From an uncultured Candidatus Binatia bacterium (GTDB taxonomy: Bacteria > Desulfobacterota > Binatia > Bin18): a DNA stretch of 64,000 bases. Shown piece after piece: positions 19,819 to 40,440 of the stretch (position 1 is its first letter; every line of letters begins with the position of its first letter). The notes below the pieces were generated by a model. The model saw only the letters and a list, made by a program, of their open reading frames with translations, was not told the origin of the DNA and ran no database searches. The stretch is taken from NCBI GenBank assembly GCA_965214605.1, contig OZ243961.1, forward strand, positions 1,280,001-1,344,000, given 5' to 3'. The position numbers and the translations under genes are program-made.

Positions 19819-21557
19819 CAGAGTTCTGCCAGTTCCTGTTCGAGTGTCTGCTGCTGAAAGAGTTCGGCGTAGAGGCCGCCTCGGGCAACTAAGTCTTTGT
19901 GCGAGCCCGTCTCAACAATACGTCCGTCGTCGAGCACAACAATTAGGTCGGCATGACGGACCGCAGAGATACGGTGCGAAATCATAATGACCGTCTTGTC
20001 CCGCGTTGAGTCACGCAACGCGCGCAGGATGGCCCCTTCAGTCCGGGTATCAACACTCGACAGCGCATCGTCGAGGACTAGGATCGGAGGATCAGCCATC
20101 AGGGCCCGGGCTAGGGTCGCGCGTTGTTTTTGGCCGCCGGACAACGTGATCCCGCGCTCCCCAACAATCGTATCATAGCCCTTGGGTAGGGCTTCAATCT
20201 CGTGACCGATGCTCGCCACCTCGGCCGCCCACTCGACCTGATCAAGGTCAACCGTTGGCAGGCCAAAGGCGATATTGTCTTTAATGCGAGTCGAAAACAG
20301 AAACGGATCTTGGGGAACAAAGCCGATACAGCGACGCAAAGCCGCCAGAGAAAACGTCCGAATATCTCTGCCGTCAATACGAATCGACCCGTTGCTGACG
20401 TCGAACAGACGCGGCAGCAGATGTACCAGGGTACTTTTTCCCGAACCCATCCGACCGACCAGAGCGACTGTGGACCCGGCCGATACGGTGAAGGTGATAT
20501 CGTGCAGCACTTGACGGCCGTTGTCAGGAGTGTGATAGGCAAAGTCAACATGATGAAAGTCAATGTCCCCTCTGAGCGCCTGACTCACTCTCTCATCAGA
20601 GCCGTCAACAATCGCGGGCTGCACGCAAAAGATACCATCGAGGCGCTGCAGAGCGGCCCTTCCCCGCTGCAAAATAGACACCAACCAGCCCAAGGCCATG
20701 GTCGGCCAGGCCAACAGGTGTAAATAGCCCATGAAAGCGACTAAATCGCCCAGGCTCAATCGGCCAGCGATGACTTGGGCCCCGCCGTACCACAGGATGA
20801 CCAACAGGCCGAGTCCGGACACGCTTTTCATCAGCGGCGGAAACAGTCCTCGTACCCGAGCCAGGGCGATACTGTCCGCCTTAAAGCGGGCGTTCAATTT
20901 GGCAAACTCCTCGTTCTGCCAGTCCTCACGGACATAGGCGCGCACAACGTGAATACCGCTGGCACCTTCCTGGACCCGGGTCGAGAGATCAGCCAAGCCT
21001 TCTTGGACACGCAGGGTCCGGACCATGATCTGACGGCTCATCACCCGAACAAAGATGATCATCAGTGGGTAAGGAGCCAGGGCCGCCAAGGTCAGGCCAG
21101 GGTCCATGGCAACCATAGCCGAGATGCCGTACACGTAGTACACGGGGGTGTTCAGCACATTCAGAATCCCCAGCCCCAGCAGCAGACGGACCGCATTCAC
21201 GTCGTTCACAAAACGTGACATCAGATCACCGGTAAAGTTGCGCTGGTAGTAACGTAAAGACAGCTTCTGTACGTGCGCGAACAGATCGTTACGCAGCTCA
21301 TACTCAATGTCGCGGCCGACATTAAAGATCAGGAAACGAGAAAAGGCGCGGACTACGCTCAGAATCAGAGCCACGCTGATAACAGCGGCAACCGACAGGC
21401 TAATGTCAAAAAAGGGGAGCCCCTGCTCAATGCCTTCAACCGTGCGTTTGAGCAAGAGCGGAATGGACATCGCCAAGCTAGCGGTGACCAATAGGCAGAG
21501 GATACCGCGCAGATACCGGTAGCGGTAACGAAAAATATAAGTCCAAAGACGATGCAT
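19818..21557 (-). CDS. ABC exporter, fused TMD-NBD subunit A (MdlA/YheI-like, degenerate Walker B)
   Basis: GRMGSGKST, LSGGQKQR, ILVLDDALSSVD; translationally coupled to subunit B. Confidence 0.92.
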   Translation of the reverse strand: MHRLWTYIFRYRYRYLRGILCLLVTASLAMSIPLLLKRTVEGIEQGLPFFDISLSVAAVISVALILSVVRAFSRFLIFNVGRDIEYELRNDLFAHVQKLSLRYYQRNFTGDLMSRFVNDVNAVRLLLGLGILNVLNTPVYYVYGISAMVAMDPGLTLAALAPYPLMIIFVRVMSRQIMVRTLRVQEGLADLSTRVQEGASGIHVVRAYVREDWQNEEFAKLNARFKADSIALARVRGLFPPLMKSVSGLGLLVILWYGGAQVIAGRLSLGDLVAFMGYLHLLAWPTMALGWLVSILQRGRAALQRLDGIFCVQPAIVDGSDERVSQALRGDIDFHHVDFAYHTPDNGRQVLHDITFTVSAGSTVALVGRMGSGKSTLVHLLPRLFDVSNGSIRIDGRDIRTFSLAALRRCIGFVPQDPFLFSTRIKDNIAFGLPTVDLDQVEWAAEVASIGHEIEALPKGYDTIVGERGITLSGGQKQRATLARALMADPPILVLDDALSSVDTRTEGAILRALRDSTRDKTVIMISHRISAVRHADLIVVLDDGRIVETGSHKDLVARGGLYAELFQQQTLEQELAEL

Positions 21558-21637: not shown

Positions 21638-22918
21638 TCAATCCTCTGTCCACTGCTCTAGGCGCATCAGCACGCCAACGAGTGCCCACAGCACGATACT
21701 CACCTCAGCATCGCCAAAGTTGTGCTGGGTCAGCCCGCCGATGAGAAAGCCGACGATACTGAGCAGAATGCCTAGGGCGCAGCTCTTGAGCGGCTCGGAC
21801 GACAGTCCGGTATAGAGCCGCCAGCCTTTGCCCAGGATGACCGCAATCAGGGCCGCAAAAGCGACGAGTCCCAGCCATCCACCATCCACCCACAGTTGCA
21901 GAAAGGTATTGTGGGCGTGGGCGTCGGAATTCCCGGCCCGCCCGGCTGGGGCGACCTCTGGATACTGGGCGTAGTAGGGGCCGCGGAACTGTTTATAGTT
22001 GCCGTAACCCCAGCCGAACAGCGGGCGGTCCCGGATCATGACGAGATTGGCCTGCCAGATGCGGCTGCGGGCAAGGTTTACCGGCGCGTTCAGGTCAAAA
22101 ATCTCACCGGCCCGCTCCCGTACCCCGTCTCCAGCACTGAGCAGCAACACCGCGCAGAGACCGAGCACCCCAAACGCCCCAGCAAGCGCCCGCCTGCCCC
22201 TCACCAGACCGGCCAGCACGAGCACGCTGGCATAGGCGATCCAGACGCCTCGGGTCAGGGAGAACAGCAGAGCCAGGACCATCAGTCCCCAGCCCACCCC
22301 CAGCGCGGCTCTTTTGCGCCAGTTGAGGGCTGGAGCCAAGAGAAAAGCCGTGACCAGAGACAGGGGAAACAGCAGATTGTGGGCGTAGGTGATGCTAGAC
22401 GAAAAAAGCCCTGCGGTCCGAAAGCCCTTTTGACTACCCAGCCAGAAGGTGGCCAGGTTTGACTCCTTGCCGACTAACTGGCGTGCCAGATCAAGGCCGG
22501 TGTAGTGCTGAACGATCGCGTAGGCGGCTAGCACGGCCGCGGTTGTTATGACCAATCTGATGAGCTGGACGGCGCATCGGCCGCTATCAATCAAGACATA
22601 GGCGACAAAAAAGGCTCCCACCAGCCACAGTTTTCGATAGACAGATAAAGAGTGGAGCGGGTCTGGGCCCAGCAGACTCGACAGCAGCAGGGCACCTAGA
22701 AACAGCACTAGGACCGGATCGAGAGGCGTGCGCGGGACGGTATGTGTCCGCCAGCAGTAGTAGGCTCCCACGCCCAGCATGATGCCGAGCAGGGTCTGCT
22801 GAATGGCGATTGCGGTGCACAGACTGATGAAAAAGAGCGCCAGGCCGATACGGACACTGCAATCAACCCATGTCCATCCCACGGTTTCTTCCAGCTCTTT
22901 GCCATTTGTGGGGTGCAT
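21638..22918 (-). CDS. O-antigen ligase / O-oligosaccharyltransferase family (Wzy_C) membrane protein
   Basis: Multiple TM segments, SLTRGVW, RSRIWQANLVMIRDRPLFGWGYGNY, HAHNTFLQ. Confidence 0.88.
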   Translation of the reverse strand: MHPTNGKELEETVGWTWVDCSVRIGLALFFISLCTAIAIQQTLLGIMLGVGAYYCWRTHTVPRTPLDPVLVLFLGALLLSSLLGPDPLHSLSVYRKLWLVGAFFVAYVLIDSGRCAVQLIRLVITTAAVLAAYAIVQHYTGLDLARQLVGKESNLATFWLGSQKGFRTAGLFSSSITYAHNLLFPLSLVTAFLLAPALNWRKRAALGVGWGLMVLALLFSLTRGVWIAYASVLVLAGLVRGRRALAGAFGVLGLCAVLLLSAGDGVRERAGEIFDLNAPVNLARSRIWQANLVMIRDRPLFGWGYGNYKQFRGPYYAQYPEVAPAGRAGNSDAHAHNTFLQLWVDGGWLGLVAFAALIAVILGKGWRLYTGLSSEPLKSCALGILLSIVGFLIGGLTQHNFGDAEVSIVLWALVGVLMRLEQWTED

Positions 22919-22921
22919 GCT

Positions 22922-24394
22922 TCAGGCGCTGCCCTGTCGGGTCAGCACGACCTTAATCGTATCGGCCAGAATACGGATATCGAGCCACACTGAATAGTTG
23001 TACATATAAGCCAGGTCGTATTTCAGCTTGTATTCCGGGGTAGTGTGGTATGCGCCGTTGATCTGGGCCAATCCGGTCAGACCGGGTTTGACCTGGAATC
23101 GCTCGGCATAGCCCGGTACACTGCGCAGGAAGTCCTTGACAAACTCGGGCCGCTCGGGCCGGGGGCCAACCAGGCTCATTGTGCCGTTTAGGACGTTCCA
23201 GAGCTGCGGGAGCTCATCGAGGCGACTATCCCTCAGAAAACGGCCGACCCGCGTCACGCGCGGGTCGGCCCGGCTGGTCAGCACCGGCCCGGTCTTGTCT
23301 TCAGCCCGATCGATCATGGTCCGTAATTTATACAGGATAAACTCCTTGCCGTCTTTGCCGACTCGCCGCTGGCGGTACACGATCGGTCCCGGAGAGGTAG
23401 TGACCAGAACGGCCGCGGCCAGGCCTAGGAGGGGGAGACTCAGCGCCAACAGGGTTGCCGCAAAAATACCGTCAAGCACGCCTTTCACGACAAAGGCCGG
23501 ATCGTCGTGTGGATTTTTCAGCGCGTCGACCAGGGGCACGTCATGGAGCCGGACCGAGGCCACCCGTCCGACCAGGATATCATACATCGAGGGGACAACC
23601 AGCACTCTGGGGCGTCTGCCAGCGTTATGCGGGGACGAATCGACCTGCTCACCGGGCTGCGTCGACAGGTCAAGCAGGCGTTCAACAAAGGCGTCTTTCC
23701 AGGTTGTGGAGGCCAGCAGGATAATGTCGTCAACGCGCACGTCATGGACAATCCGCTCCAACTCTGTGGCGTCTCCCAGCCAAGGAACCTCCAGATCTTC
23801 CCAGGCACTGTTCCAGGCTGGCTGGCCATTCAGACCGGAGAGGCTGACCAGGCCCACAATCTCAGGTCGGGGTCGCACCGCCGGCAGAACATTGAGAAAA
23901 GCTCGCGCCTCCTTTGGCGTACCAACCAGTAAAATCCGCAACGGGCGGAGCCGTCCTACCCGGCGCAGGATGCCAAGGCGCAGGGCGCCGATCATCGCCG
24001 AGTTGAAAAACCAGAAGAGCACCAGCACTGAACGGGGAAAAAAGAGATCGCCCCGAAAAAAATACCATGCCGTGGTCAGCAGCAATTGCAACCCACCGGC
24101 GGCTATGGCCCGGGGGAGGACCCGAGCTCGCAGCTGGAAGGTCTGCAGATCGTAGAGACCCAGAAAGTATAAAACAAATCCTTGAGTGACGAGAAGAAAG
24201 AGGAGAGGATGGTGCACTTCGATCAGGCGCTCAGCCGGCAGCAGCTCAGCGGTGAAGGGCAACGGCAGCACAAACCGGAAGGCAAACGCCATTCCGTACG
24301 CCCCGCCGACACACACCAGGTCAGCGGCCAACAGTCCCAACAGTCCCAACAGTCCCAACAGCGGCGTTGGGGACCGGAGCGTGCGGCTCCTCAC
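22922..24394 (-). CDS. Undecaprenyl-phosphate hexose-1-phosphate transferase (WcaJ/WbaP-type initiating enzyme)
   Basis: N-terminal TMs; YKLRTM, DPRVTRVGRFLRDSRLDELPQLWNVLNGTMSLVGPRPERP, KPGLTGLAQ. Likely GTG start at 24394 (GGAGG RBS; overlaps the upstream stop). Confidence 0.92.
   Translation of the reverse strand: MRSRTLRSPTPLLGLLGLLGLLAADLVCVGGAYGMAFAFRFVLPLPFTAELLPAERLIEVHHPLLFLLVTQGFVLYFLGLYDLQTFQLRARVLPRAIAAGGLQLLLTTAWYFFRGDLFFPRSVLVLFWFFNSAMIGALRLGILRRVGRLRPLRILLVGTPKEARAFLNVLPAVRPRPEIVGLVSLSGLNGQPAWNSAWEDLEVPWLGDATELERIVHDVRVDDIILLASTTWKDAFVERLLDLSTQPGEQVDSSPHNAGRRPRVLVVPSMYDILVGRVASVRLHDVPLVDALKNPHDDPAFVVKGVLDGIFAATLLALSLPLLGLAAAVLVTTSPGPIVYRQRRVGKDGKEFILYKLRTMIDRAEDKTGPVLTSRADPRVTRVGRFLRDSRLDELPQLWNVLNGTMSLVGPRPERPEFVKDFLRSVPGYAERFQVKPGLTGLAQINGAYHTTPEYKLKYDLAYMYNYSVWLDIRILADTIKVVLTRQGSA
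24328..24361. repeat. 9-bp tandem repeat (CCAACAGTC, 3 full copies plus 7 bp) encoding LLG-LLG-LLG
   Basis: ccaacagtc ccaacagtc ccaacagtc ccaacag read directly. Confidence 0.9.
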
Positions 24395-25278
24395 CCATGC
24401 CTCCGGACCCGGCTGCATGATTGGGCAAGCCGCGCGTAGAGCTTTTTGCGAGACAGCAGGTAGCCGTGCTTCCAGAAAAAATAGCCGACGCCCCACATGT
24501 GTTTCCACATCAGGCTAGACCAGAGCGAGCGGGTCTGGCGCCGCTCCTTGTGCACAACGACTGCCTCAGGGTTATACACCACCCGCCAGCCAAGCTGTTG
24601 CAGCCGCAGACACAGATCAACGTCCTCCGGGCCATAGAAAATATGTTCGTCAAGCATCCCTACGGTGCGGAGGGCACTGCAACGGATAACCTGACAGGCA
24701 CCGATCACGTAGTCCACATCACGGATCGTATTGTGATCCCAGTCGGCCATTTCAGACGCGCGGACGATTTTTTGCGCCGCCGCTGAGGGTAAACGCCGGG
24801 CCAGTTTATCGGACAAGGTCGGGAACAGCCGACAGGAGAGCTGCAGTCCACCGTCGGCAGTGGTCAGTTTAGGTCCACACAGCCCAACCTCAGGCTGTGT
24901 TTCCATATAGCGGATGAGGGAGTCCAAAGCCCCTGGCTGAACAATCGTGTCGTCGTCCAGAATAATGACATAGTGCCCGTGCGCCAAGCGGAGGCCTTGA
25001 TTGCGAGCCGGGGCAACACCGCGGTTTCTCGCGTTACGCACCAGCCGCGCGGTGGGTAGGGTCTTTTGGATAAGGGCACAGGTCTGATCCTGTGAGCCGT
25101 TATCGACCACAATGACCTCACCAGGAAAGGTGCGCAGCCCTTGGGTTAGAGAGGCCAAGCAGGTTGCAATATGCTGCTCGGAATTCCAGGTCAGGATCAC
25201 AACCGAAACGGTGACCTCTGTCGGCTGCGTGTGGACCGCCGCGGGCTTGGAATGAGTTTTAGGATTCAGGCAGCTCAT
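24391..25278 (-). CDS. GT2 glycosyltransferase (WbbL-like)
   Basis: VSVVILTWNS, VVDNGSQD, NRGVAPARNQG, ILDDD, YGPEDVDLCLR. Confidence 0.9.
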   Translation of the reverse strand: MSCLNPKTHSKPAAVHTQPTEVTVSVVILTWNSEQHIATCLASLTQGLRTFPGEVIVVDNGSQDQTCALIQKTLPTARLVRNARNRGVAPARNQGLRLAHGHYVIILDDDTIVQPGALDSLIRYMETQPEVGLCGPKLTTADGGLQLSCRLFPTLSDKLARRLPSAAAQKIVRASEMADWDHNTIRDVDYVIGACQVIRCSALRTVGMLDEHIFYGPEDVDLCLRLQQLGWRVVYNPEAVVVHKERRQTRSLWSSLMWKHMWGVGYFFWKHGYLLSRKKLYARLAQSCSRVRRHG

Positions 25279-25329
25279 GGTGTTTTCCGTGGGGAGCAGC
25301 CGACGCCTGATGGGTGCATCTTTCCAGAC

Positions 25330-26706
25330 CTATCGCAGTAAGACCCGCTCAACACTCTCCTTGACCGGCAGGAGCCGTTGTATCTTCTTGTCCAACACCG
25401 CCCGTGTTGTTGGAGACACCAGTCTTCTTAGCAGCGCCTGCAAGCGCAAATAGCGTACTGTCCGCGCCACTCGGAGCTGGCCGAGGCGCGCATCGGGCAC
25501 GGGACGGGGCTGATGTGTATGCAATTCCCTCGCCTCCCGGAGCAAGGTCACCATACGCTCACCCATTTGATCAAGGTGAAAATGCTGCCTGATCCGTTGG
25601 ATTGCGGCTTGGCCGAGGGCCGCCCGGCGTTGGGGGTCACCGAGGAGACGAGCTAGGATATTCGCGTATTGACGCGCTCCAGTCTCTGTATCTGTTCCAT
25701 GACGGGCGGGGTTCGGCGACACCAGCACCCCGCACTCCGGAGTGAGGAGTTCCCGCTGGCCACCCACATCCGCCCCAACAACCGGCAGTCCACACGCCAT
25801 GGCCTCAAAGATCGACACGGCAATCCCCTCCCACCGAGAGGGCAAAAAAAAGATATCGGCCGCCACCATCAGGTCCCGAATCCGTGTATTTGAAACCGCC
25901 CCCAGCAAACGCACTTGGTCCACTAAGTCGGAGGAGCTGACACGGCGCTGCAGCCGAGTAAATTCAGGCCCATCGCCCGCTACCACTGCCACAAAGCGCT
26001 CGGTGCCGGCCTTCAGGTGCCGGAGGGTCTCCAGAAACAGGTGCGGCTGTTTCTGGGCGCAGATACGTCCTGCATACAAGATGATCGGGAGCCGGAGGGC
26101 GTCTCCTTGACTCCGTTCAGCACCGGCCAGCAGCTCACGACGAACCCGCTTCCGCCGCTCAAGGTCGGGCTGCCATTCGACCGGATCAATATTGGTGTAA
26201 CATACCCGGATGCGCCCAGGGTCGGCTCCACGGTCAACCATCCATCTCCGCAGATAGTCAGAAGAGACAAGTTGCAAGTCGAGCAAGTCTTGGTGTTCAA
26301 TCGACATCCGGGGGTATCCACCCCGTTTCCAAGCCTGCTCTTCCATGTGGCAAAAACCGACAAACGTCACGTCCGGACACTCGGCACGCAGGTACGGCAG
26401 GAGCAGATAGCCAAGTTCGCTATTGGCAATCAGCACAACATCGACTCGCCGCGTCTGAATCAACTCCCGGAGAAAAGCCGGATAGTCCGCCATCCGTCGC
26501 TGGCGGTCGAACAGAAAAATGTCTTGGCTATAGCGGGCAAACCGGGCAAACCAAGGGTGGGCGGAGGGCAAAGTCGTTGCTATTAAAACCTGCCATCCCC
26601 ACTGGCGTAACTGCCGGAGCAGGTCCAGATTAAACTTGTCCGCCCCACCCATTTCCAACCAAGGCACGAGCAATAAGAGGCGGGGGGGAACAGTGTCATC
26701 TGTCAT
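25330..26706 (-). CDS. GT4 glycosyltransferase
   Basis: GGADKFNLD, YAGRICAQKQP, FLPSRWEGIAVSIFEAMACGLPVVGADVGGQREL. Confidence 0.92.
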   Translation of the reverse strand: MTDDTVPPRLLLLVPWLEMGGADKFNLDLLRQLRQWGWQVLIATTLPSAHPWFARFARYSQDIFLFDRQRRMADYPAFLRELIQTRRVDVVLIANSELGYLLLPYLRAECPDVTFVGFCHMEEQAWKRGGYPRMSIEHQDLLDLQLVSSDYLRRWMVDRGADPGRIRVCYTNIDPVEWQPDLERRKRVRRELLAGAERSQGDALRLPIILYAGRICAQKQPHLFLETLRHLKAGTERFVAVVAGDGPEFTRLQRRVSSSDLVDQVRLLGAVSNTRIRDLMVAADIFFLPSRWEGIAVSIFEAMACGLPVVGADVGGQRELLTPECGVLVSPNPARHGTDTETGARQYANILARLLGDPQRRAALGQAAIQRIRQHFHLDQMGERMVTLLREARELHTHQPRPVPDARLGQLRVARTVRYLRLQALLRRLVSPTTRAVLDKKIQRLLPVKESVERVLLR

Positions 26707-26920
26707 TGGCTGTAGGTACCGAGCAGGGTGAAAGGTATTCCATCCATGTTATGCCACACCCGGCTACAGCGTGATAGCCCCGCATCACCCCTCTTCTCCC
26801 TCGGCTCCCGACCATCTTTCCTTTCCTGTTGGCTTTTGATACATGCTTGGGGCTGATGAAAGATTTTGTAAAGATCAGTGACGGAGACAGCTCCAACTGA
26901 GTCGCGATCGGAAGAGGGCT

Positions 26921-27160
26921 ATGCAGAGAAGAGGGCTATTCCTTTTTATTTTGCTATGGACGAGTGTCGTCTGTCCACGGGCTGCCCACGCCTATTTAGA
27001 TCCAGGCAGCGGCAGCATGCTGTTGCAGCTCTTGCTCGGGGGTGTGGCTGGTCTGGCCGTTTTGCTCAAGCTGTACTGGCAGCGTTTCCTCCTCTTGTTC
27101 GGTATGAACCAAGCGGAAGACTCGGCAAGCGAAGACGCGCAATCTGCTCAGCAGGAGTAG
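26921..27160 (+). CDS. Small membrane protein with signal peptide and YLDPGSGS motif
   Basis: RBS GGAAGAGGG. Signal peptide ends AAHA, then YLDPGSGSMLLQ, a TM helix and an acidic tail. Preferred over the overlapping N-terminal extension of ORF 26878..28677. Confidence 0.8.
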   Translation: MQRRGLFLFILLWTSVVCPRAAHAYLDPGSGSMLLQLLLGGVAGLAVLLKLYWQRFLLLFGMNQAEDSASEDAQSAQQE

Positions 27161-27195
27161 TCCTACCGGCTTACGGTTCGGCTCAGACGTGTCCC

Positions 27196-28677
27196 ATGTC
27201 TCCTCCTGATGCGCTCAGGTCTGAACGCGGCTCGTTTCGCGACCGCACGAGCCGCGTTTTTTATCACGCGGACACTGTATTGCGAGCGCTGACCGCCCCA
27301 GCCTTGGTCGACTGGAATCAGCTCACCTCAACCACCTTCTTTCAGCGCCTGCACAGCGCTGGAAAGATTGTCCGGACCGAACAGGTTGATCCGCTTTATT
27401 TCTGCGGTACCACCCCTGAATTTGCCTCATCAGAGCGCCCATCTCCCACGGGCACAAGCCCCTGGGTCGCCACCCTCAAACACCAAAAGATCCCATTTAT
27501 TTCCTATCCGTACGAATGGTCGTTTGGTATGCTCAAAGATGCCGCTCTATTACAGCTGGAGTTGCTTCAGGTCGCATTAGCCGAGGGCATGATTCTCAAA
27601 GACGCCTCGTCTTTCAATGTCCAATGGGTCGGCAGCCGACCGATTTTTATCGACATCCCCTCCTTTACCCGTTTGACGCCCGGAACCCCGTGGGTTGGCT
27701 ATCGGCAGTTCTGTCAATTATTTCTGTTTCCGCTCCTTCTCCAAGCGTACAAAGACATCCCCTTTCAACCCTGGCTGCGGGGGAGTCTTGAGGGCGTTTC
27801 TCCCCAGGACTGCCGTCAGTTCATGTCGGTCCGTGACCTGCTGCGGCCGGGCGTGTTCGGCCACGTGTATTTGCAAGCCAAGGCCCAGGTCCGGTATGCC
27901 GACTCTGGCCAGCAACCTCTTCAGGGCAAACCCGGCCGTCAACAGAACCTCAAACATGCTCTGCGCAAGGCGGGCTTTCATACGGCTTTGATTCAAGCCA
28001 ATGTCAGTCGTTTGATGAAACTTATCCAGCGTCTGAGCTGGAACCGGGCGCGCTCAACCTGGGTAGAGTATACCCATCACCTTCCATACACGGAGGGCGA
28101 ACAGGCCCAAAAAGCAGATTTTGTCCGCCGTGTGATCCACTCGCGGTCTTGGTCGATGGTCTGGGATCTTGGCTGCAACACGGGCACCTTCTCACGTCTT
28201 GCGGCTCAAAACGCCACCACGGTCGTCGCCATGGACGCCGATGCCCTTGTCATAGAACGATTCTACCAAGCCTTGAAGACAGACGGGGAAACCTCGATTC
28301 TCCCCTTGGTCAGCAATGTGGCCGATCCGGCGCCAAACCTCGGCTGGCGGGGAGCAGAGCGCCAAGCCCTCGACCAGCGCACCCGACCAGACCTTATTCT
28401 GAGTCTGGCCCTCATTCATCATCTGGTGATCGGGGCCAATATTCCTCTGTACGAATTCCTCGTCTGGCTAGCGGGCTTCAAGGCTGCGGTAGTCATTGAG
28501 TTCATCACTCGCGAGGATCCCATGGTCCAGACCTTGCTCCGGCACAAAGACGACCACTATGCGGACTATGAGACAGCATATTTTGAGCGCTGCTTGTCCG
28601 CCGCTTTTACCATCAGGGAGCGTCATCTCTTAGCCTCGGGTACACGCATCTTATACTATGGTGAGCCGAAAACCTGA
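27196..28677 (+). CDS. NoeA-like protein: N-terminal kinase-like region fused to a class I SAM methyltransferase
   Basis: GSFRD, ISYPYEWSFGMLKDAA, LKDASSFNVQW, IFIDIPSF; SAM motif VWDLGCNTG, LALIHHL. Start placed at ATG 27196. Confidence 0.8.
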   Translation: MSPPDALRSERGSFRDRTSRVFYHADTVLRALTAPALVDWNQLTSTTFFQRLHSAGKIVRTEQVDPLYFCGTTPEFASSERPSPTGTSPWVATLKHQKIPFISYPYEWSFGMLKDAALLQLELLQVALAEGMILKDASSFNVQWVGSRPIFIDIPSFTRLTPGTPWVGYRQFCQLFLFPLLLQAYKDIPFQPWLRGSLEGVSPQDCRQFMSVRDLLRPGVFGHVYLQAKAQVRYADSGQQPLQGKPGRQQNLKHALRKAGFHTALIQANVSRLMKLIQRLSWNRARSTWVEYTHHLPYTEGEQAQKADFVRRVIHSRSWSMVWDLGCNTGTFSRLAAQNATTVVAMDADALVIERFYQALKTDGETSILPLVSNVADPAPNLGWRGAERQALDQRTRPDLILSLALIHHLVIGANIPLYEFLVWLAGFKAAVVIEFITREDPMVQTLLRHKDDHYADYETAYFERCLSAAFTIRERHLLASGTRILYYGEPKT

Positions 28678-31216
28678 ACGCCGTCCAGCGCGTCAGCAAA
28701 AAGTCGTGGAGAAGGGAGAGACGGGCTGGACGGCCAGCCTGCATGTCTTTGTCCTCGTGGGCTTTGCCGTTGCTCAGCCCCTCTTTGACCTGCTGGCACG
28801 CCAGGCGGAGTTTTTTATCTTCCGGCAGGCCACCTCGGGAGACATTACCGCTCTCGTCGTGATGCTTTGCGTGCTCCTCCCGCTCGGCTTGATAGGCGTG
28901 GAGGGGATTATCGGTCTATGCAGCCCCCGGCTGAGACGTTGGGCCCATGGAGCAATTATTGCCGGAGGAGTGGCGGCAACGGTTTTACCTGCTCTCCATC
29001 CCATCAGTGCTTTGCCGGGCTCTCTACTCGTTGCCGGAGCGTTCCTGCTCGGAGGGATGACGGCGCTGGGGTATGCCTTTTTTCCGCCCGTCCGGCTGTT
29101 CTTCAGCCTGTTGTCCCCGGCTGTGCTGATTTTTCCTAGCCTCTTTGTCTTTACCTCGCCGGTCTTTCGAATTGTCTTTCCGACTGACCCTTCCATTCCG
29201 GTTGAGCGCCTACACATTGCAAACCCACCGCCTATTGTTTTTATTATTCTGGATGAACTCCCCCTGACCTTGCTGCTTAACGAACACCACCAGATTGATG
29301 CGGCCCGCTATCCCCATTTTGCAGCTCTGGCACAGCACGCAACTTGGTTTCGCAATACCACCACCGTCAGTGCCTCAACTTCTCAGGCTGTTCCAGCCAT
29401 TCTGACCGGCCAGTACCCCGTCCCCCAGCAACTACCACATGCGACCGACCACCCACATAATTTGTTTTCACTGCTAGCTGGGCTGTATGACCTCAACACG
29501 TTTGGCGCGCTGACCCAGCTCTGTCCAGCTTCCCTGTGCACGCAGCACCGGAGCGCGGTGTGGCAGCGTCTCCCCTCCCTGCTGTCCGACCTAGCCGTTG
29601 TGTATCTCCATCTGCTCCTGCCACAGGACCTCCGAGCCAGCCTTCCGACTATTTCTCAAAACTGGGGACATTTTATCAATGCTCCAGAGCCGCACGACCG
29701 TAGAGCTGCCCAGTTAAAACTTCTTGACAAAATGATGCGCCACACCCTTCTCAGCGACCGCCGCCAGCAGGGACTGGACTTCATCCAAGCCATTCGGGCA
29801 GCAGACCAGCCGCATCTGTATTTTTTTCATTTCCTTCTTCCGCACGCTCCTTATAACTACCTCCCGTCCGGAAAGGTTTATACACAAGAAGGAGGAGTTC
29901 CTGGCCTGCCTGCCAAAGGTCAGCGGTATGTTGACGACACCCAGGGAGTGTTGCAGGTCTACCAACGCCATTTACTCCAGGTCGGCTTTGTTGACACATG
30001 GCTGGGAGCACTGTTGAGCCATCTCCAAGAAACAGGTCTGTATGACCAGACTCTGCTGGTCATTACCGCCGACCACGGAGTCAGTTTTCGGCCGGGCGAT
30101 TTGCGTCGCCTCCCTACCCAGACAACGTTTCAAGACATCATGCCCGTCCCCCTCTTCATCAAAGCCCCCTTTCAACGAGACGGCAACGTCAACGATCAAC
30201 CGCTGGAAACCATTGATATTCTTCCAACACTTGCAGATATCCTTAGGGTGAAGCTGCCTTGGGAGATTGATGGCTGCTCGGCATTTGATCCGTGCTCCGA
30301 ACGGATTCGCCGGATTTACTCATCATCGGGCAACCCCTTGACCTTTCCGGGCTTAGCTCAGGCTCTAGAACGAGCCGTCCAACGCCAACACCGCCTATTT
30401 GGCTCCGGGCTCCCCTTCCCAACCGCACCTAGTAGCCCCTTGTTAGGCAAACACCTCAAAGAGTTCGGCAGTATCGGAGCAACCAATGTGCGGATTGAAA
30501 TTGATCGGCCCGATCGTTTCACCACCGTGGATCTCCGGTCAGACTTTGTTCCCGCTTATATCAGCGGCTTAATCTCTCCCCAATCTCGTAGTGACCAGCC
30601 CGTCTCACTTGCCGTAGTGGTCAATGGTACGATTCAAGCGGTGACTCAGCCCTGGGGCGTTCCAATCCGAGGCCGGCATGGGTTCTGGTCGGCCACTGTC
30701 CCGGAGACCGCTTTTCAAACCGGCCGGAATACGGTTGAGGTCTTTGTCGTTTCCAATGTCGCAGGACAAATTACCCTGGCTCGTGCACCCGAAACACACT
30801 ACCGCCTGGACTCGGCCGACCAGACCGAAGCGTTGGTGTCGGCCGATGGCTCTTCCATACCTATCGTTCCCCAAGCCCTCCGAGGCTATATTGAGACTCC
30901 CCAGGTTTCTGAGCACACTGTCTTGCTCAAGGGTTGGGCGGTTGATGAAAAACATGCCCAATCGGCCGAGCAAATTCTTATTTTTCTGAACGGAACATTT
31001 TACCACGCGGGTCCAACAGCTGTCTCTCGTCCAGAGATTGCAGAATGGCTTGAACAGCCCGCTTTTGCCACCTCAGGCTTTCGCTATACCTTTCCAGCCG
31101 AGCCTTTTGTTGGCAGTGGGACGCCTGAAGTGCGGGTCTTTGCCGTCTCCGGCAGTATCGCTTCGGAACTGCGCTACATTGAGGGGTATCCGTGGAAGCC
31201 GTCGGTCCAATACTGA
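28658..31216 (+). CDS. Membrane-anchored sulfatase-fold (alkaline phosphatase superfamily, LtaS/EptA-like) protein with C-terminal Ig-like domains
   Basis: About 5 N-terminal TMs; IILDELP, SASTSQAVPAILTG, PHAPY, ITADHG, DILPTLAD; C-terminal GWAVD...RPEI...SGF domain. Confidence 0.8.
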   Translation: MVSRKPERRPARQQKVVEKGETGWTASLHVFVLVGFAVAQPLFDLLARQAEFFIFRQATSGDITALVVMLCVLLPLGLIGVEGIIGLCSPRLRRWAHGAIIAGGVAATVLPALHPISALPGSLLVAGAFLLGGMTALGYAFFPPVRLFFSLLSPAVLIFPSLFVFTSPVFRIVFPTDPSIPVERLHIANPPPIVFIILDELPLTLLLNEHHQIDAARYPHFAALAQHATWFRNTTTVSASTSQAVPAILTGQYPVPQQLPHATDHPHNLFSLLAGLYDLNTFGALTQLCPASLCTQHRSAVWQRLPSLLSDLAVVYLHLLLPQDLRASLPTISQNWGHFINAPEPHDRRAAQLKLLDKMMRHTLLSDRRQQGLDFIQAIRAADQPHLYFFHFLLPHAPYNYLPSGKVYTQEGGVPGLPAKGQRYVDDTQGVLQVYQRHLLQVGFVDTWLGALLSHLQETGLYDQTLLVITADHGVSFRPGDLRRLPTQTTFQDIMPVPLFIKAPFQRDGNVNDQPLETIDILPTLADILRVKLPWEIDGCSAFDPCSERIRRIYSSSGNPLTFPGLAQALERAVQRQHRLFGSGLPFPTAPSSPLLGKHLKEFGSIGATNVRIEIDRPDRFTTVDLRSDFVPAYISGLISPQSRSDQPVSLAVVVNGTIQAVTQPWGVPIRGRHGFWSATVPETAFQTGRNTVEVFVVSNVAGQITLARAPETHYRLDSADQTEALVSADGSSIPIVPQALRGYIETPQVSEHTVLLKGWAVDEKHAQSAEQILIFLNGTFYHAGPTAVSRPEIAEWLEQPAFATSGFRYTFPAEPFVGSGTPEVRVFAVSGSIASELRYIEGYPWKPSVQY

Positions 31217-31244: not shown

Positions 31245-33554
31245 TCAGTTAGGCTGGCTCCGTCCCACCAAGAAACGCTTCAGCGTATCTTTTAGCGCGA
31301 TGCACCACCGCATATTGTAGTTTACGGCAAGCCGATAAGACGGCATCAAGAGACGCCGGAGGACAAAATAGGTGCGGGTCTGCCACGGCAGCCCAGCACT
31401 CTCAACAGGCGAAAGGCGAGGCGTGGTGGATTTTGCTTGTCCACGCTCCTGCCACAACTCCTCAGCCACGCTCGCCAAGCGGGTATACTCGACCGCTTGG
31501 CTGGCGCATATTCGGGCCAGACCGAGATGGGGAATGGGACGCGGCTGTGTTGTATGCCGGTGTTGGGCTTCTCGAAAGAGCTGCTCCAGCCGCTTAGCCA
31601 ACTCCTCTAACCGGAATGCGGTCTGTATCCGGCGGCGACCAGCTTGGCCCATGCTGTAGCGACGTTCAGGCTGTGCGATGAGCTCAGCCAGGGCGGCAGC
31701 GTAGGTCTCAGCTTCGGCCTCCGGTGTCGTGCGGGGAATCAAGATGCCGCACTCTGGCGTGACAAGTTCCCGCTGGCCACCCACGTCAGCCCCAACAATG
31801 GGCAGCCCACAGGCCATCGCTTCATAGAGAGACAAAGCAATCCCCTCCCACTGTGAAGGCAGAAAAAAAATGTCTGCCTCCGCCATCAGCCGACAAACGG
31901 AGTCGTTTGGGACGGCGCCCAGCAGCCGAACATGCCTGCCAAGCCCACGGCGTTTGATAAAGCCGCCCAACCAGTCGGCGTCAGGCCCATCGCCAGCTAC
32001 CACGGCCGCCCAGTTTGTCGTGGTCCGGTCAAGACAGACTAAGCTCTGGGCAAAGACGCGGGGCTGCTTTTGCTCGCAAATACGCGCCACGTACAGCAGG
32101 AGAGGCGTATTGTCGGCAATGCCTAGTTCGTGCCGGACAGACGTCCCGTTCTCCGTCGCTGTCGGCCGCCATTTTTCCGCATCAACGTTGGTATAACACA
32201 CCCGGATACGTTCAGAATCGGCTCCGCGCTGTTCCATCCAATGGCGAAGATGCTGCGACGAAACAATGTTAAGATCAAGCACGTCTTGATATTCAACGGC
32301 AAAACGCGGATAGCCGCCACTCTTCCAGTCTTCTTCCTCCATATGGCAGTAATCGACAAAGGCGACCCCCGGACACCGGGCTCGGAGATAGGGCAAGAGA
32401 AGATAGGCAAGCTCACTATTCGAGACCATCACCACAGAGATCTGGCGAGAGTGGATCAGGTAGCAAAGGAAACGCGGATAGTCCGTGAGGCGCAAAAAAT
32501 GGTGTAAGATAAAAACATCGGGGGTGAAATGGGCAAACTGTGGCCACCAAGATGACTCTCCGGTTAAGGTGGTGGCGATGGACACTTCCCAGCCCTGACC
32601 GGTCAACAGTTCCAAGACATCGAGATTAAATTTATCAGCGCCACCAACCGTAAGCCACGGCAGCAGCATCAGGAGGCGCGGTTTGTCCTTCTGCAGACGA
32701 TTGTCCCACAGGTATTCATCCGCTATTGGCGTATACGCCCGATGCCCTTCCGGCTGGACGTGTGGAAATTTCCCAGCCCACAGCTGGGGATAGCGCCGTT
32801 GGAGTTGGCCCTTGACCTTCTGTGGCTTGTTCCAGTGAGCCCAGCGATCCTGATGTGACTCGCGTCGCCGATACCAATCCAGATACTCTGGCAGCGTCCC
32901 TCCCCAATAGCCCCGGCTGGCACATCGCAGCCAAAAATCCCAATCCTCAAATCCTCTCCGAAAATTTTCATCATACCCGCCAACCGCGCCATGGACCGCT
33001 GTCTGGACCACACTGGTAACCGCGACACTATTTTCTTCCAAAAAGGCTTCCCCATTATGAAAACCTTGCTGCCACAAATACGTCTGCGCCTCAAAGCCGA
33101 CAGTATACCCCTTCACAAACGCATACTCAGGATACGACTCTAGAAACCACAGACACTTCTCAATGGCGGTTGGTTCCAACAGATCGTCGCTGTCGAGTTG
33201 GACCACATATGGAGTCCGGGCCGCCTGAAAACCGCTATTGCGGGCGGCACTCAGGCCACGATTGTGGTCATGGTCGATCACACGAATCCGTGTATCCCGA
33301 TTGCGATATTCGTCGAGTAAGGCCAAGGCGTCAGCTTGGGTCGAACCATCATTAATAATGAGCCATTCCCACTGCTGGAATGACTGACGCATGATGGAGC
33401 GAGCAGTCTCATGAAAAATCGCCCCAGTGTTGTAAAAGGGTGTCACAATGGTCGCCGCCGGAGGGACGGTCGGGTCAGCCGGCCCATAGTCATAGACAGG
33501 ACGCTGGTCCGACGCCGGCGTATTTGCATAATCAGGATTTTTCGGATCAATCAT
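31245..33554 (-). CDS. Bifunctional GT2 + GT4 glycosyltransferase
   Basis: IINDGS, NRGLSAARNSG, LDSDD, FEDWDFWLR (GT2); GGADKFNLD, FLPSQWEGIALSLYEAMACGLP (GT4). Start ATG 33554 is coupled to the upstream stop. Confidence 0.92.
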   Translation of the reverse strand: MIDPKNPDYANTPASDQRPVYDYGPADPTVPPAATIVTPFYNTGAIFHETARSIMRQSFQQWEWLIINDGSTQADALALLDEYRNRDTRIRVIDHDHNRGLSAARNSGFQAARTPYVVQLDSDDLLEPTAIEKCLWFLESYPEYAFVKGYTVGFEAQTYLWQQGFHNGEAFLEENSVAVTSVVQTAVHGAVGGYDENFRRGFEDWDFWLRCASRGYWGGTLPEYLDWYRRRESHQDRWAHWNKPQKVKGQLQRRYPQLWAGKFPHVQPEGHRAYTPIADEYLWDNRLQKDKPRLLMLLPWLTVGGADKFNLDVLELLTGQGWEVSIATTLTGESSWWPQFAHFTPDVFILHHFLRLTDYPRFLCYLIHSRQISVVMVSNSELAYLLLPYLRARCPGVAFVDYCHMEEEDWKSGGYPRFAVEYQDVLDLNIVSSQHLRHWMEQRGADSERIRVCYTNVDAEKWRPTATENGTSVRHELGIADNTPLLLYVARICEQKQPRVFAQSLVCLDRTTTNWAAVVAGDGPDADWLGGFIKRRGLGRHVRLLGAVPNDSVCRLMAEADIFFLPSQWEGIALSLYEAMACGLPIVGADVGGQRELVTPECGILIPRTTPEAEAETYAAALAELIAQPERRYSMGQAGRRRIQTAFRLEELAKRLEQLFREAQHRHTTQPRPIPHLGLARICASQAVEYTRLASVAEELWQERGQAKSTTPRLSPVESAGLPWQTRTYFVLRRLLMPSYRLAVNYNMRWCIALKDTLKRFLVGRSQPN

Positions 33555-36027
33555 TGGGCTCAGTCTCTGAAGCTGGAAATGGCTGAGCGGGATTGACAAT
33601 TTTTAGAAACCGACCGAGGCGTCCCCAAAAACTCTCCTGCCAATGCTCGGTCTGTGCCTGCCAATACTCGGCCTGCGCCTGCCAATGCTCGGCCTGCGCC
33701 TGCCAGCTCTCCCATTGTCCTTCTAGCCACGCCTTCCCCGTTTCCAGCTCACCAATCCAGACACGTTGCTGCTCCACCACCCGCTCCTGCTCCTCGGCTA
33801 GTGCCTGCCAGCGCCGCCACTGATCTTCCAGCCACCCCCGTCCCCTATCGAGCTGAGCCGCCCACTCCCGTTGTTCCAATATCGCTTCTACGGCCTCGGC
33901 CAAGAGTTGAGCCTGGCGCGTCTCACTTCTGCGTTGGGCATAGTACGAGACAGCCGCGCGCATGGCTCGACCACACTCTTCCACCCCCCGTTCGTATTGA
34001 TAGTCGTGCGAAGCATTGTCCGCGTGCCAGCGGTAGCGCACCAAGGTATCGTGGATAAAAGCGACCCGTCCCTCAATACACAGCTTCATCCACATCTCAT
34101 AGTCGCAGGCATAGCCGAGCGCTTCATTAAAGCCGCCAACCATATCGAGTTGTTCCCGCCGGACAACCACGGTCGACGCGCAGATACACTCCCCGTGCAG
34201 CAACAGTTTGCGAAAATATGCCTCGCCCTCTTCCACAAAATCCACCTCCGCTTTTTCTATCCAGTCACTCAAACGGCTAGGCGCTCTGGCTTCTACAATG
34301 GGTTCTGCCCTCGAATGCACTAGGCTCAGATCGGGCTCACTCTCAAACAGGGCCATCTTGCGCGCCAGGTTGTCGGCCAACATTACATCGTCCTGATGAA
34401 ACACGCACACATACTCGCCCCGCGCCAGCTCGACAGCCGTATTCCAATTCGCCGGAATACCTCGCCGCTGGGAATTCTGATAGACGCGAAGACGGGGGTC
34501 GTCAAACTCCTGGAGAAGCTTCAGCGTTCGATCGCTTGAGCCGTCATCGACTGCCACAACTTCAAAATCGGTATAGCTCTGCTGCAGCACACTCCGCACC
34601 GCTTCAGCTACATATGCCTCACCATTGTAGGTCGGCAGACAGACGCTCAAGCGTGGCCGGGCCAAGTCAGGCGATGTATCTCTGAGTTGGCGAGGTGCAG
34701 CCGGACTGGAGAGGGTCGGAGCTTGACGTGATGACCCCGACCCGTCCGGCATCGCGGTAGGAACGCCTGAAGGCGGGACGGAGCGTGGGCCAGACCGTTC
34801 CAGCACGGCTTCATAGGTCTGCTCGACATCCCGGGCGTAGGTGTCGGCATCGCGCCAGACAAACCGGGCTGACTTGAGTCCAGCCAGCAGGGCCGGCTCG
34901 TCCAGAAGACGCCGCAGACACCGCCGCAGCGCGTCGGCATTCCCCGGCTCAAACAGCAATCCGTTATGGCCATCGTGGATGAGTTCGGGCAGGGCCCCCC
35001 TGCGGGCGGCAATCACCGGCAGACCGACCTGGAGAGCCTCACGGGCGACCAGGGAAAACGTTTCTTCACAGATTGAGGGGATGATGCACACATTATGCCG
35101 GGCCAGAATGGCCGGGAGTTCAGAACGATCGTAGACGCCTCCCCAATGGACAGACAGGTCGGCTGCGGCCTGGCGGAGCTGGTCTATGTACGCCTGCTTG
35201 GACGCCAGTCCAACCCCATAGAACGAGACCTGCGCCTGCTCGGCGGGCAGACCTTTGAGCGCGTGCAGCAACACCTGCGCACCTTTGTGCGGCAGCAGAG
35301 CTCCAATACACAGCACCCGTAGGGTCGGCTCCGCCTCCCCCTCATCTGATCGGTCTGGAACAGAACGGGACAGGGGGGGCAGCCCAGGGGCAATTATTTG
35401 GAGCCGATCGTGTAAAAAAGGGAAGTCATTCACAATCCGCCGGGCCAGAAAGGCGGACGGAACAATAACCTGACGGGGTCCCTGTAGAACTTGAGTCATA
35501 CACGCAAAACGATGACGGACGTCTTCGGCTGGGGCAACATCGTGGAGACACCCAACGCACCGCTCGCCGCGTTGCGGTCCGGGACAGAGTTGGTCGTCCC
35601 GGTCAATCAGGTGCACCAAGTGACAGGCAAAAAAGAAATCGTGCAGGCTCAATACCGTGGGGTAGCCAAGGGTGGACACACAGGGAACGAGGCTGGCTGA
35701 CAGATGGGCAATATGCTGAAAATGGACGATATCGGCCCGACAGCGGTGTAAAAGCTGGCGAAAGATGTCATGGAAAAAGGGATTGTCGTAGCGTAAACGA
35801 AAGGACATTGTCCGGGTATAGTTATTCACAATGCGGATAATCCGCAGCCCGTGCTCATCCTGCTCTTCTTGGAGGCTGCATTCCGCACGGTCGGGCGCAA
35901 AGGTCCGCGCCACAATCGTCACCTGGTGTCCACGTGCCTGGAGAGCGCGGGACAGCTCCAAGGTCAGGATCTCAGTCCCGGCCCTCTCCTGTGGGGGAAG
36001 TCCGTGCACAACTTGGACAATCCGCAT
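33547..36027 (-). CDS. Bifunctional GT4 + GT2 glycosyltransferase with Trp-rich coiled-coil C-terminus
   Basis: AGTEILT, PSICEETFSLVAREALQVGLP (GT4); Pro/Ser linker; LPTYNG, VDDGSSD, HQDD (GT2); heptad-repeat tail. Confidence 0.9.
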   Translation of the reverse strand: MRIVQVVHGLPPQERAGTEILTLELSRALQARGHQVTIVARTFAPDRAECSLQEEQDEHGLRIIRIVNNYTRTMSFRLRYDNPFFHDIFRQLLHRCRADIVHFQHIAHLSASLVPCVSTLGYPTVLSLHDFFFACHLVHLIDRDDQLCPGPQRGERCVGCLHDVAPAEDVRHRFACMTQVLQGPRQVIVPSAFLARRIVNDFPFLHDRLQIIAPGLPPLSRSVPDRSDEGEAEPTLRVLCIGALLPHKGAQVLLHALKGLPAEQAQVSFYGVGLASKQAYIDQLRQAAADLSVHWGGVYDRSELPAILARHNVCIIPSICEETFSLVAREALQVGLPVIAARRGALPELIHDGHNGLLFEPGNADALRRCLRRLLDEPALLAGLKSARFVWRDADTYARDVEQTYEAVLERSGPRSVPPSGVPTAMPDGSGSSRQAPTLSSPAAPRQLRDTSPDLARPRLSVCLPTYNGEAYVAEAVRSVLQQSYTDFEVVAVDDGSSDRTLKLLQEFDDPRLRVYQNSQRRGIPANWNTAVELARGEYVCVFHQDDVMLADNLARKMALFESEPDLSLVHSRAEPIVEARAPSRLSDWIEKAEVDFVEEGEAYFRKLLLHGECICASTVVVRREQLDMVGGFNEALGYACDYEMWMKLCIEGRVAFIHDTLVRYRWHADNASHDYQYERGVEECGRAMRAAVSYYAQRRSETRQAQLLAEAVEAILEQREWAAQLDRGRGWLEDQWRRWQALAEEQERVVEQQRVWIGELETGKAWLEGQWESWQAQAEHWQAQAEYWQAQTEHWQESFWGRLGRFLKIVNPAQPFPASETEPND
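33636..33706. repeat. 21-bp tandem repeat (3 copies plus a partial) encoding WQAQAEH-type heptads
   Basis: cctgccaatgctcggtctgtg / cctgccaatactcggcctgcg / cctgccaatgctcggcctgcg / cctgccag. Confidence 0.9.
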
Positions 36028-36056
36028 ACGATATCCTCTCTAGTTCCTCTACCCGG

Positions 36057-37028: not shown

Positions 37029-37234
37029 GAATCGGCCCTTTACCCAGAGGGACGCCGTCTCCCCGACTCTCTCCTTGGAGGGGCATCACTCTGTGCAGCG
37101 TCCATCTTACCGACAAACAGGAACAGTAGTGTCGGGCCATGCCCACATTCGGTTGACGGCCTCCTGTATTTTTTTCGGCCCGGCTAGTAATAATCTCCCG
37201 CTGAGCATGCATGTGCCGGCGAAGGCGATCCTCT

Positions 37235-37833: not shown

Positions 37834-37909
37834 AGTGGACAACCAAGACCTATGCGAGCCCAGCCACTCTATTGAGGAGGGGTGACAGATGCAATTTCTC
37901 CCCGATCCT

Positions 37910-38692: not shown

Positions 38693-38722
38693 CGTTTGTG
38701 TGTTTCCTTCCCTAGTATGTCA

Positions 38723-40417: not shown

Positions 40418-40440
40418 GCCTCGACTATATGCTCTAACGG

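Follow-up and report, generated by a model that had tools for sequence, protein, structure and literature searches.

The nodL-noeA-noeB operon of Sinorhizobium meliloti is said, by the title of Ardourel's 1995 work, to consist of three genes. The biochemical role of NoeA and NoeB in Medicago host range has been open since 1995 (PMC9048898, PMC9758233). For 816 neighbourhoods of Lani_1194, a kinase of the NoeA type, a survey of the Legionella pan-kinome gives homologues of Lani_1193 in 65% and of the NoeB-like Lani_1195 in 38% (PMC9758233). A gene pair of this type, with a small gene in front of it, was analysed here in a 64,000-nucleotide (nt) stretch of the forward strand of an uncultured Candidatus Binatia bacterium (assembly GCA_965214605.1, contig OZ243961.1, positions 1,280,001 to 1,344,000). 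This stretch is called the window, and coordinates are positions in it unless a locus is named. The small gene is an ATG-initiated open reading frame (ORF) on the plus strand at 26921..27160 (stop included), with a product of 79 amino acids (aa). An original prediction, made from the letters of the window, had presented it as a hidden gene whose product might carry a functional motif at a newly exposed N terminus. The ORF was confirmed as a genuine gene, and the small-protein family is widespread, uncharacterised and attached to the known but biochemically unsolved NoeA/NoeB pair.

WbdD of Escherichia coli O9a is a kinase/methyltransferase that terminates the O-antigen chain by capping the polyprenol-linked glycan with methyl phosphate; it has the order methyltransferase, kinase, coiled coil, and its function at the membrane needs its own non-catalytic C-terminal region (PMC3482155). 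In systems of the WbdD type the cap is read by a carbohydrate-binding module of Wzt. The NoeA-like neighbour of the small gene also joins a protein-kinase-like domain to a class I methyltransferase, and the window also contains glycosyltransferases, an ATP-binding cassette (ABC)-2 permease and a Wzt protein with a Wzt_C domain. By analogy, the non-catalytic membrane role of the WbdD region would correspond to the role proposed below for the small protein. However, the WbdD arrangement on one polypeptide was not found. In the NoeA-like protein the kinase precedes the methyltransferase, there is no coiled coil, and the membrane element would be a separate polypeptide; nor did Wzt or Wzm accompany any of the 80 related loci described below.

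The small gene and its protein family

The product begins with MQRRG and a hydrophobic core, followed by AHA (residues 22-24), Y25-LDPGSGS, a helix at about residues 33-49, KLYWQR and an acidic tail. In blocks, the 79 residues read MQRRGLFLFILLWTSVVCPRAAHA, YLDPGSGS, MLLQLLLGGVAGLAVLL, KLYWQRFLLLFG and the acidic tail. The pattern AY[LI]DPG[ST]GS gave 502 confirmed matches, of which the best 80 were taken as related loci. They are thus a selected sample, and the small frame was matched at E ≤ 1e-11 in all 80 fetched loci. The gene had been described as masked by a longer ORF. Such an ORF of 599 aa is present (26878..28677, GTG start at 26878), but it is merely a mechanical ORF and not the true downstream gene: alignments of the downstream protein's homologues begin at residues 1-13 of a 493-aa form starting at ATG 27196, so the small gene, which stops at 27160, does not overlap the next one. 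The 106-codon extension of the 26878 frame matched related loci only as weak shadows (best E 5e-6). In a comparison of 40 codons with those of 12 relatives, the ratio of nonsynonymous to synonymous changes (pN/pS) was 0.19-0.41 in all 12 comparisons for the small-protein frame, while the 26878 frame gave ratios of 2.0-8.7 in six comparisons and contained stops in the other six relatives. Selection acts on the small frame and not on the 26878 frame, and the claim of a genuine gene is upheld by both results. That it was hidden is partly true: one database gene call on a 4.3-Mb contig (P0019) is a 47-aa truncation starting at Met33, which shows that automated calling can lose the leader and the motif. 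As for the ribosome-binding site attributed to the gene, a purine-rich Shine-Dalgarno (SD)-like site, GGAAGAGGG, precedes the ATG and is rather close to it.

A 12-nt direct repeat, GAAGAGGGCTAT, was noted at 26911-26922 and 26928-26939, the copies being 17 nt apart. Copy 1 spans the SD-like site and the small gene's start codon; copy 2 falls within codons 3-7. A scan of positions 26500-27400 gave no promoter-like site on the plus strand and no terminator-like site, counts at or below shuffle expectation. No second copy of the small gene was present in the genome; the sole other match (E 0.64) lay inside an unrelated 410-codon frame.

A word-indexed search gave 458 candidates 43-139 aa long, and 454 of them were near-length matches at E ≤ 0.01. 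With a profile of 40 members, 10,225 cluster representatives were matched at E ≤ 1e-3 and 2,509 at E ≤ 1e-10, and the top 150 profile matches were all 66-135 aa long. The protein occurs in Binatia, Nitrospirota, Acidobacteriota, Pseudomonadota, Actinomycetota, Planctomycetota, Chloroflexota, the Candidate Phyla Radiation (CPR) and others. No family in Pfam-A or NCBIfam matched it at E ≤ 0.1, all 30 matches among its ESM Atlas neighbours were 'hypothetical protein' with no common Pfam family, and a PDB profile search gave only a chance match to a transmembrane (TM) segment (E 7.5) and no homologue of solved structure. A literature search with the motif strings found no paper, and neither a name nor a published description of the protein. 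Judged by eye against the usual criteria, assignment as a lipoprotein (no lipobox Cys), a prepilin-like leader (no Gly-Phe cleavage motif) or YidD (no Cys motif) was rejected.

Of 258 proteins of up to 140 aa, 248 bear the motif, and conservation was determined in these; P0019, the truncated call, is among the other 10. All 248 proteins have A24, Y25, G31 and Q36, while P28, G29 and S32 (237 proteins) are nearly invariant. D27 and L39 are each kept in 244, G40 and A43 in 245 and G41 in 246. Position 30 is Ser or Thr in 222 proteins and Ala, Asn or Gly in 26. Within the helix, positions 36, 39/40, 43/44 and 47 share one face. In the juxtamembrane stretch Lys or Arg was found at position 50 in 245 proteins, Trp53 in 239 and Arg or Lys at position 55 in 231, so that K50, L51, Y52, W53 and R55 are mostly conserved, as is G61. 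The expected conservation of the motif was therefore borne out, in the form A-Y-x-D-P-G-x-G-S. Distant members, found through the partner gene, vary it (AYLDPRTGS, AYLDPITGS, GYLDFGSGS, AYLDPGIGS and AYVDPGTAG), with Tyr and Asp kept in all five.

In the window protein the basic n-region MQRRG is followed by the h-region LFLFILLWTSVVC and by PRAAHA directly before Y25, in agreement with the signal peptidase I heuristic. A hydrophobic leader was present in 242 of the 248 proteins, its sequence being variable. Around the cleavage point all 248 have Ala at -1 and Tyr at +1, and position -3 is Ala in 223, Val in 15, Ser in 7 and Thr in 3, so the -3/-1 rule is satisfied throughout. A textbook n/h/c leader together with this rule, kept without exception, argues for cleavage before Tyr25, and signal peptidase I most likely removes the leader after Ala24 in the Candidatus Binatia protein. 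The predicted site thus agrees with the family pattern, as far as the heuristic goes. The free N-terminal Tyr that would result is not a universal requirement, since 26 of the 80 loci were flagged as leaderless, about 22 of them clearly. A leader is accordingly not present throughout the family. The leaderless relatives, mainly Thermoleophilia/Solirubrobacterales and two Acidobacteriota, start with MTTVL-, MHLL-, MEL- or MIYTPL- followed by AYLDPGSGS. As they keep the motif with its Ala, Ala24 belongs to the motif itself. The motif always lies at the extreme mature N terminus, within about 6 residues. Neither Lys nor Arg is among the five commonest residues at positions 25-49 of the 248 proteins, while they dominate positions 50 and 55. 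Basic residues after the helix, with none common before it, point to an N-out/C-in topology, and the orientation originally predicted fits this charge distribution.

Similar layouts are known from other small membrane proteins. M13 procoat is made with a leader that is cleaved off, and has a short, acidic segment outside, a single TM helix and basic residues at its cytoplasmic end; the Pf3 coat protein is leaderless and N-out. Both leader-bearing and leaderless forms occur in the small-protein family as well, and in two of the 80 loci a YidC-like gene lies directly downstream. There is, however, no sequence relation, and the small protein belongs to a cell, where it accompanies enzymes in an operon, and not to a virion. 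C-terminal sorting signals (LPXTG, PEP-CTERM and GlyGly-CTERM) consist of a motif, a TM helix and a basic cluster. The small protein has the same order of elements, a short motif followed by a hydrophobic helix and basic residues, but only a leader or 3-6 residues precede its motif and a cargo domain was not found. Neighbour clustering of the 80 loci gave no sortase-like or exosortase-like gene recurring near the small gene.

The module with NoeA-like and NoeB-like genes

A NoeA-like homologue of the 493-aa protein was found in 72 of the 80 loci, and 70 of these have it downstream of the small gene in the same orientation. The gap between the two genes had a median of 4.5 nt in the 66 loci with an assigned start and was within 200 nt in 64 of them; many pairs have an overlapping stop and start (1-, 4- or 8-nt overlaps). 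An iterative jackhmmer search detected a sulfatase-like ORF in 62 of the 80 loci, a count that may include matches to the N-terminal membrane region only (e.g., in L077), and plain tblastn detected the 852-aa protein of the window in 34. Among the 52 loci with at least 4.5 kb on both flanks, 49 contain the NoeA-like gene, 49 the sulfatase-like gene and 47 both. Of all 80 loci, 54 combine a sulfatase-like ORF with a NoeA-like gene that is on the same strand and has an assigned start, and 32 of these have the order small gene, NoeA-like, NoeB-like. The small protein, the NoeA-like protein and the NoeB-like protein form a near-obligate three-gene module. According to the original prediction the small protein more likely serves the sulfatase-fold enzyme rather than the kinase/methyltransferase; synteny, at 49 of the 52 full-flank loci for each, does not favour one over the other.

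No other neighbour recurred in more than 11 of the 80 loci in a blastp clustering, which was used only for the question of a third neighbour because long ORFs that overlap in GC-rich loci caused some of the NoeA-like and sulfatase-like ORFs to be clustered together. A search from the 493-aa protein found it in 9 of 201 same-phylum genomes, the window's genome included, so the NoeA-like module is a sporadic accessory module. In six of the eight other same-phylum loci a small ORF is located directly upstream, and in one of the two misses the upstream region is cut off. Identity matrices from 44 loci correlated at r 0.77 (partial 0.50) between the small and the NoeA-like protein and at 0.73 (partial 0.37) between the small and the NoeB-like protein, but these values are confounded by shared phylogeny and do not separate the two partners.

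Eight loci lack the NoeA-like gene. Five of them (L024, L028, L054, L065 and L077) contain a sulfatase-like ORF, which directly flanks the small gene in all but L054. Elsewhere, in L059, L074 and L030, the small gene is directly followed by a sulfatase-like gene. Loci without the kinase/methyltransferase also include genes for phosphonate or glycerophosphate decoration, namely a phosphoenolpyruvate (PEP) mutase-cytidylyltransferase, a thiamine pyrophosphate (TPP) enzyme, Fe-ADH and Glyphos_transf. In L065 (4198-7592) and L077 (4581-6920) the small gene stands beside a PEP mutase-cytidylyltransferase fusion, Fe-ADH and a sulfatase-family gene, with no NoeA-like gene; these neighbourhoods suggest a wider link to the phospho- or phosphono-decoration of surface glycans. 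In L033 a YidC-like gene overlaps the small gene by 4 nt, in a cluster with a TPP-decarboxylase-like gene, Fe-ADH, Glyphos_transf and RgpF. On two plasmids, of Singulisphaera (L084, at about 2844) and Smac51 (L085, at about 4438), small ORFs adjoin genes labelled 'SAM-dependent methyltransferase' and 'LTA synthase family protein'. Both small ORFs are absent from the available gene tables, and that of L085 lies downstream of the methyltransferase.

The S. meliloti operon also contains a member of the family. On pSmeSM11c the order is nodL (183 aa, Mac and Hexapep), a 71-aa ORF, a NoeA homologue (476 aa) and a 553-aa Sulfatase-domain protein. The 71-aa ORF (L083, 3748-3963, between nodL and noeA) reads MPIIMSVVGFLILSIVPAHA followed directly by YLDPGTGS, and belongs to the same family at the same position; the usual three-gene description of the operon is without it. 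It is kept in 61 plasmid records (57 from Sinorhizobium, 3 from Rhizobium and 1 from Ensifer), some of which label it 'hypothetical protein' beside 'noeA: nodulation protein NoeA'. No function was assigned to it in the literature searched. To judge by gene order only, Lani_1193 is probably a member of the same family, and the main text of PMC9758233 does not describe Lani_1193.

The 493-aa partner is a member of the NoeA/Lani_1194 kinase-methyltransferase family, with 32.7% identity over 97% to the S. meliloti NoeA homologue (E 7e-53). Its Pfam methyltransferase matches were below the cut-off. The AlphaFold2 (AF2) model had a predicted local distance difference test (pLDDT) score of 91.5, and residues 286-493 of it matched methyltransferases at Z 15-17.7. 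The WbdD methyltransferase domain was among these matches (Z 15.8, 20% identity), and many generic enzymes scored just as high. Fold searches with the whole model returned methyltransferases only; the kinase-like fold was seen only with residues 1-285 modelled alone (AF2, pLDDT 89), for which all 50 matches listed were protein kinases at Z 8.6-10.4. R30, D136, N141 and D153 are invariant in 59 NoeA-like sequences, R30 being the Arg that replaces the catalytic Lys. This agrees with the kinase description of NoeA/Lani_1194 in PMC9758233, which has Arg for Lys and conserved D, N and D. Neither an N-terminal leader nor a clear TM segment was detected in the 493-aa protein by sequence, hydrophobicity scan or AF2 model.

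The 852-aa partner gave a Pfam Sulfatase match over residues 193-529 (3.1e-24), and its best PDB sequence match was the phosphonate monoester hydrolase 4upk (2.9e-22). Four hydrophobic stretches are present in residues ~25-175. This N-terminal membrane region is poorly conserved among NoeB-like proteins, with a mean column identity of 17% and no invariant TM residue. A near-invariant Thr, T201, is found in the NoeB-like alignment, and the window protein carries STSQAVPAILTG. This Thr would occupy the nucleophile position of the sulfatase CxPxR motif, where sulfatases have the Cys or Ser that becomes formylglycine. Judged by its sequence, the 852-aa protein probably transfers phosphoryl groups and has its catalytic domain on the outside, as would NoeB/Lani_1195, for which PMC9758233 predicts an alkaline-phosphatase fold.

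A possible role for the small protein

We favour the reading, to which we give slightly less than an even chance, that the NoeA/NoeB module has in the small protein a membrane subunit without catalytic activity, oriented N-out/C-in. It would be made with a Sec-type leader and cleaved after Ala24 by signal peptidase I, and the mature form would have about eight residues (YLDPGSGS) outside, one TM helix with a face of Gln, Gly and Ala, and the basic/aromatic stretch and acidic tail in the cytoplasm. The other members of the module would be the cytoplasmic NoeA-like kinase/methyltransferase and the membrane-bound, Thr-type NoeB-like enzyme of the alkaline-phosphatase superfamily, with its catalytic domain outside. 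The cytoplasmic stretch of the small protein would hold the soluble kinase/methyltransferase at the membrane, the site of the lipid-linked glycan substrate. Its helix and outer motif, for their part, would contact the membrane enzyme, other small-protein molecules, or both. That the 493-aa partner has no anchor of its own was counted in favour of a membrane subunit.

Several observations weigh against this proposal. Within the 80 loci the invariance of the motif is a product of how they were chosen, and the synteny counts come from the same selected sample. With full flanks, L011 and L052 have no sulfatase-like gene and L024 and L065 no NoeA-like gene, and in L033 (6085-7862) and L053 (6007-7876) a full-length YidC-like gene lies directly downstream instead. 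Homologues of Wzt and Wzm were found within ±6 kb in none of the 80 loci, so the ABC-transporter context is specific to the window. Searches for longer proteins found neither enzyme fused to the small protein, although a simple tether might be expected to fuse occasionally; the two 'longer' matches of the small protein and the two of the NoeA-like protein all appear to be gene calls extended too far or shifted in frame. A pure tether model also leaves the invariant outer motif unexplained. Finally, the small protein is far better conserved than the TM region of the NoeB-like enzyme, which fits poorly with tight TM-TM packing and hints at self-association or a lipid ligand.

Such a self-assembling TM oligomer or lipid-carrier-binding element, helping to present or translocate the substrate, was considered as an alternative. 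The face formed by Q36, G40, G41, A43 and G44 would drive homo-oligomerisation or bind a lipid that does not vary; the head group of a polyprenyl phosphate, held at the PGSGS turn, would be one example. A single conserved face of the helix, made up of small residues and a polar Gln, is what this would lead one to expect, as is a protein that is far more conserved across phyla than its protein partners, in keeping with an invariant ligand or self-contact, and that persists with different enzyme sets. We nevertheless regard it as quite improbable, since it is drawn purely from the conservation pattern and has neither a homologue of solved structure nor a precedent in the family. Somewhat less improbable, but still unlikely, is a role as partner or regulator of the NoeB-like enzyme only, with motif and helix docking there and the link to the kinase/methyltransferase reduced to co-expression in an operon. 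AcrZ, MgrB and PmrR are small proteins that act on larger membrane proteins. Most of the invariant residues would lie outside or within the membrane, where the NoeB-like protein is the sole enzyme of the module, and this role would suit both the sulfatase-like ORF kept in five of the eight loci without a NoeA-like gene (directly flanking in four) and the sulfatase-like gene directly after the small gene in L059, L074 and L030. Yet the cytoplasmic stretch K50-G61 is conserved too, L011 and L052 have the NoeA-like gene without a sulfatase-like gene, and translational coupling is with the NoeA-like gene. The poorly conserved TM region of the NoeB-like proteins also speaks against it, and the partial correlations (0.37 vs 0.50 for the NoeA-like protein, both phylogeny-confounded) do not favour it.

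The original prediction had proposed Tyr25 or a Ser as covalent acceptor or shuttle. On the outer face Tyr25, Ser30 or Ser32 would then receive a phospho-linked group from the Thr-nucleophile NoeB-like enzyme, and some membrane phosphoform transferases do modify Ser or Thr of pilin or flagellar proteins. The main attraction is that a Thr-type phosphotransferase would work on the same side of the membrane as the motif. Tyr25 is invariant, Ser or Thr at position 30 and Ser32 are found in 222 and 237 of the 248 proteins, the motif always stays close to the mature N terminus, and the small gene also occurs in phosphonate or glycerophosphate decoration clusters (PEP mutase, TPP-decarboxylase-like, Fe-ADH and Glyphos_transf). 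However, the Tyr does not need a free amino group, as the leaderless forms show; 26 of the 248 proteins have Ala, Asn or Gly at position 30, and in distant members position 29 or 30 is occupied by Arg or Ile (AYLDPRTGS, AYLDPITGS and AYLDPGIGS). A stoichiometric acceptor from a single small gene would also be an unusual logic. An acceptor role found no support and is very unlikely. More doubtful still is an elaborated form, a trans-membrane phospho-transfer device, in which the kinase/methyltransferase would add a methyl-phosphodiester to the lipid-linked glycan and, after export, the NoeB-like enzyme would move the phospho-glycan onto Tyr25 or Ser with loss of methanol; if true, the polymer would be anchored in the membrane through a tiny protein and not through lipid. 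That the ORF is a non-functional chance frame, or a translated leader tuning expression of the downstream gene, has practically no chance of being correct. Its shortness, its weak annotation (the 47-aa P0019) and the translational coupling to the next gene in many loci would allow it, but amino-acid conservation across many phyla with saturated synonymous sites and the low pN/pS ratios stand against it, and the 454 matches and 10,225 representatives, with the same ratios, already contradict it.

Positions in the window and meaning for the family

The features of the small gene and of its two partner genes are listed in Table 1.

Table 1. Positions of the small gene, its parts and its partner genes in the window
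Feature	Position	Strand	Basis
SD-like site, purine-rich GGAAGAGGG	26910..26918	+	read from sequence; 2 nt before ATG
Small membrane protein gene, 79 aa	26921..27160	+	ORF, homologues, pN/pS
Residues 1-24, predicted Sec-type leader (MQRRG, hydrophobic core, AHA)	26921..26992	+	sequence and family -3/-1 pattern
Residues 25-32, YLDPGSGS, predicted extracytoplasmic N-terminal motif	26993..27016	+	conservation; also in leaderless relatives
Residues 33-49, TM helix with conserved face Q36, L39, G40, G41, A43, G44, V47	27017..27067	+	hydrophobicity scan and conservation in 248 proteins
Residues 50-61, conserved, predicted cytoplasmic juxtamembrane stretch K-L-Y-W-x-R-h-x-x-h-F-G	27068..27103	+	conservation; basic residues fit the positive-inside rule
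Residues 62-79, variable acidic/polar tail	27104..27157	+	neither length nor sequence conserved
NoeA-like protein, 493 aa, protein-kinase-like N-domain and class I S-adenosylmethionine (SAM) methyltransferase C-domain	27196..28677	+	folds, homology
NoeB-like membrane enzyme, 852 aa, N-terminal hydrophobic segments, sulfatase/alkaline-phosphatase-fold domain and extra C-terminal region	28658..31216	+	Pfam, PDB search

A glycan-assembly cluster on the minus strand of the window occupies 31245-41634 and 21638-26706. The first part contains two ~800-aa GT2/GT4 fusions, a GT2, two ORFs with methyltransferase domains, the ABC-2 permease (38723-39574) and the Wzt ATPase with its Wzt_C domain (40441-41634). 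In the second part a GT4, a GT2, a Bac_transf initiating transferase and a Wzy_C/O-antigen-ligase-like protein are encoded. WbdD acts in surroundings of this type when it caps its polymer. The cluster is flanked, also on the minus strand, by two tandem full-length ABC exporters (ABC_membrane and ABC_tran, 17980-21557) and a putative aminopeptidase (PF10023, 16796-17983).

The family has thousands of members across many bacterial phyla, without a family model or a name, and they are sometimes mis-called or missing from annotation tables. Nothing else accompanies the NoeA/NoeB pair as constantly as the small protein does. The classic nodL-noeA-noeB operon contains a fourth conserved ORF, and polar or deletion mutants and complementation constructs that ignored it may need to be re-read. 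If the kinase/methyltransferase does need the small protein for its activity or location, in vitro work on NoeA-like enzymes would require the small protein as well. The invariant eight-residue motif, predicted to lie on the outer side of the membrane, is an unusually sharp target for mutagenesis.

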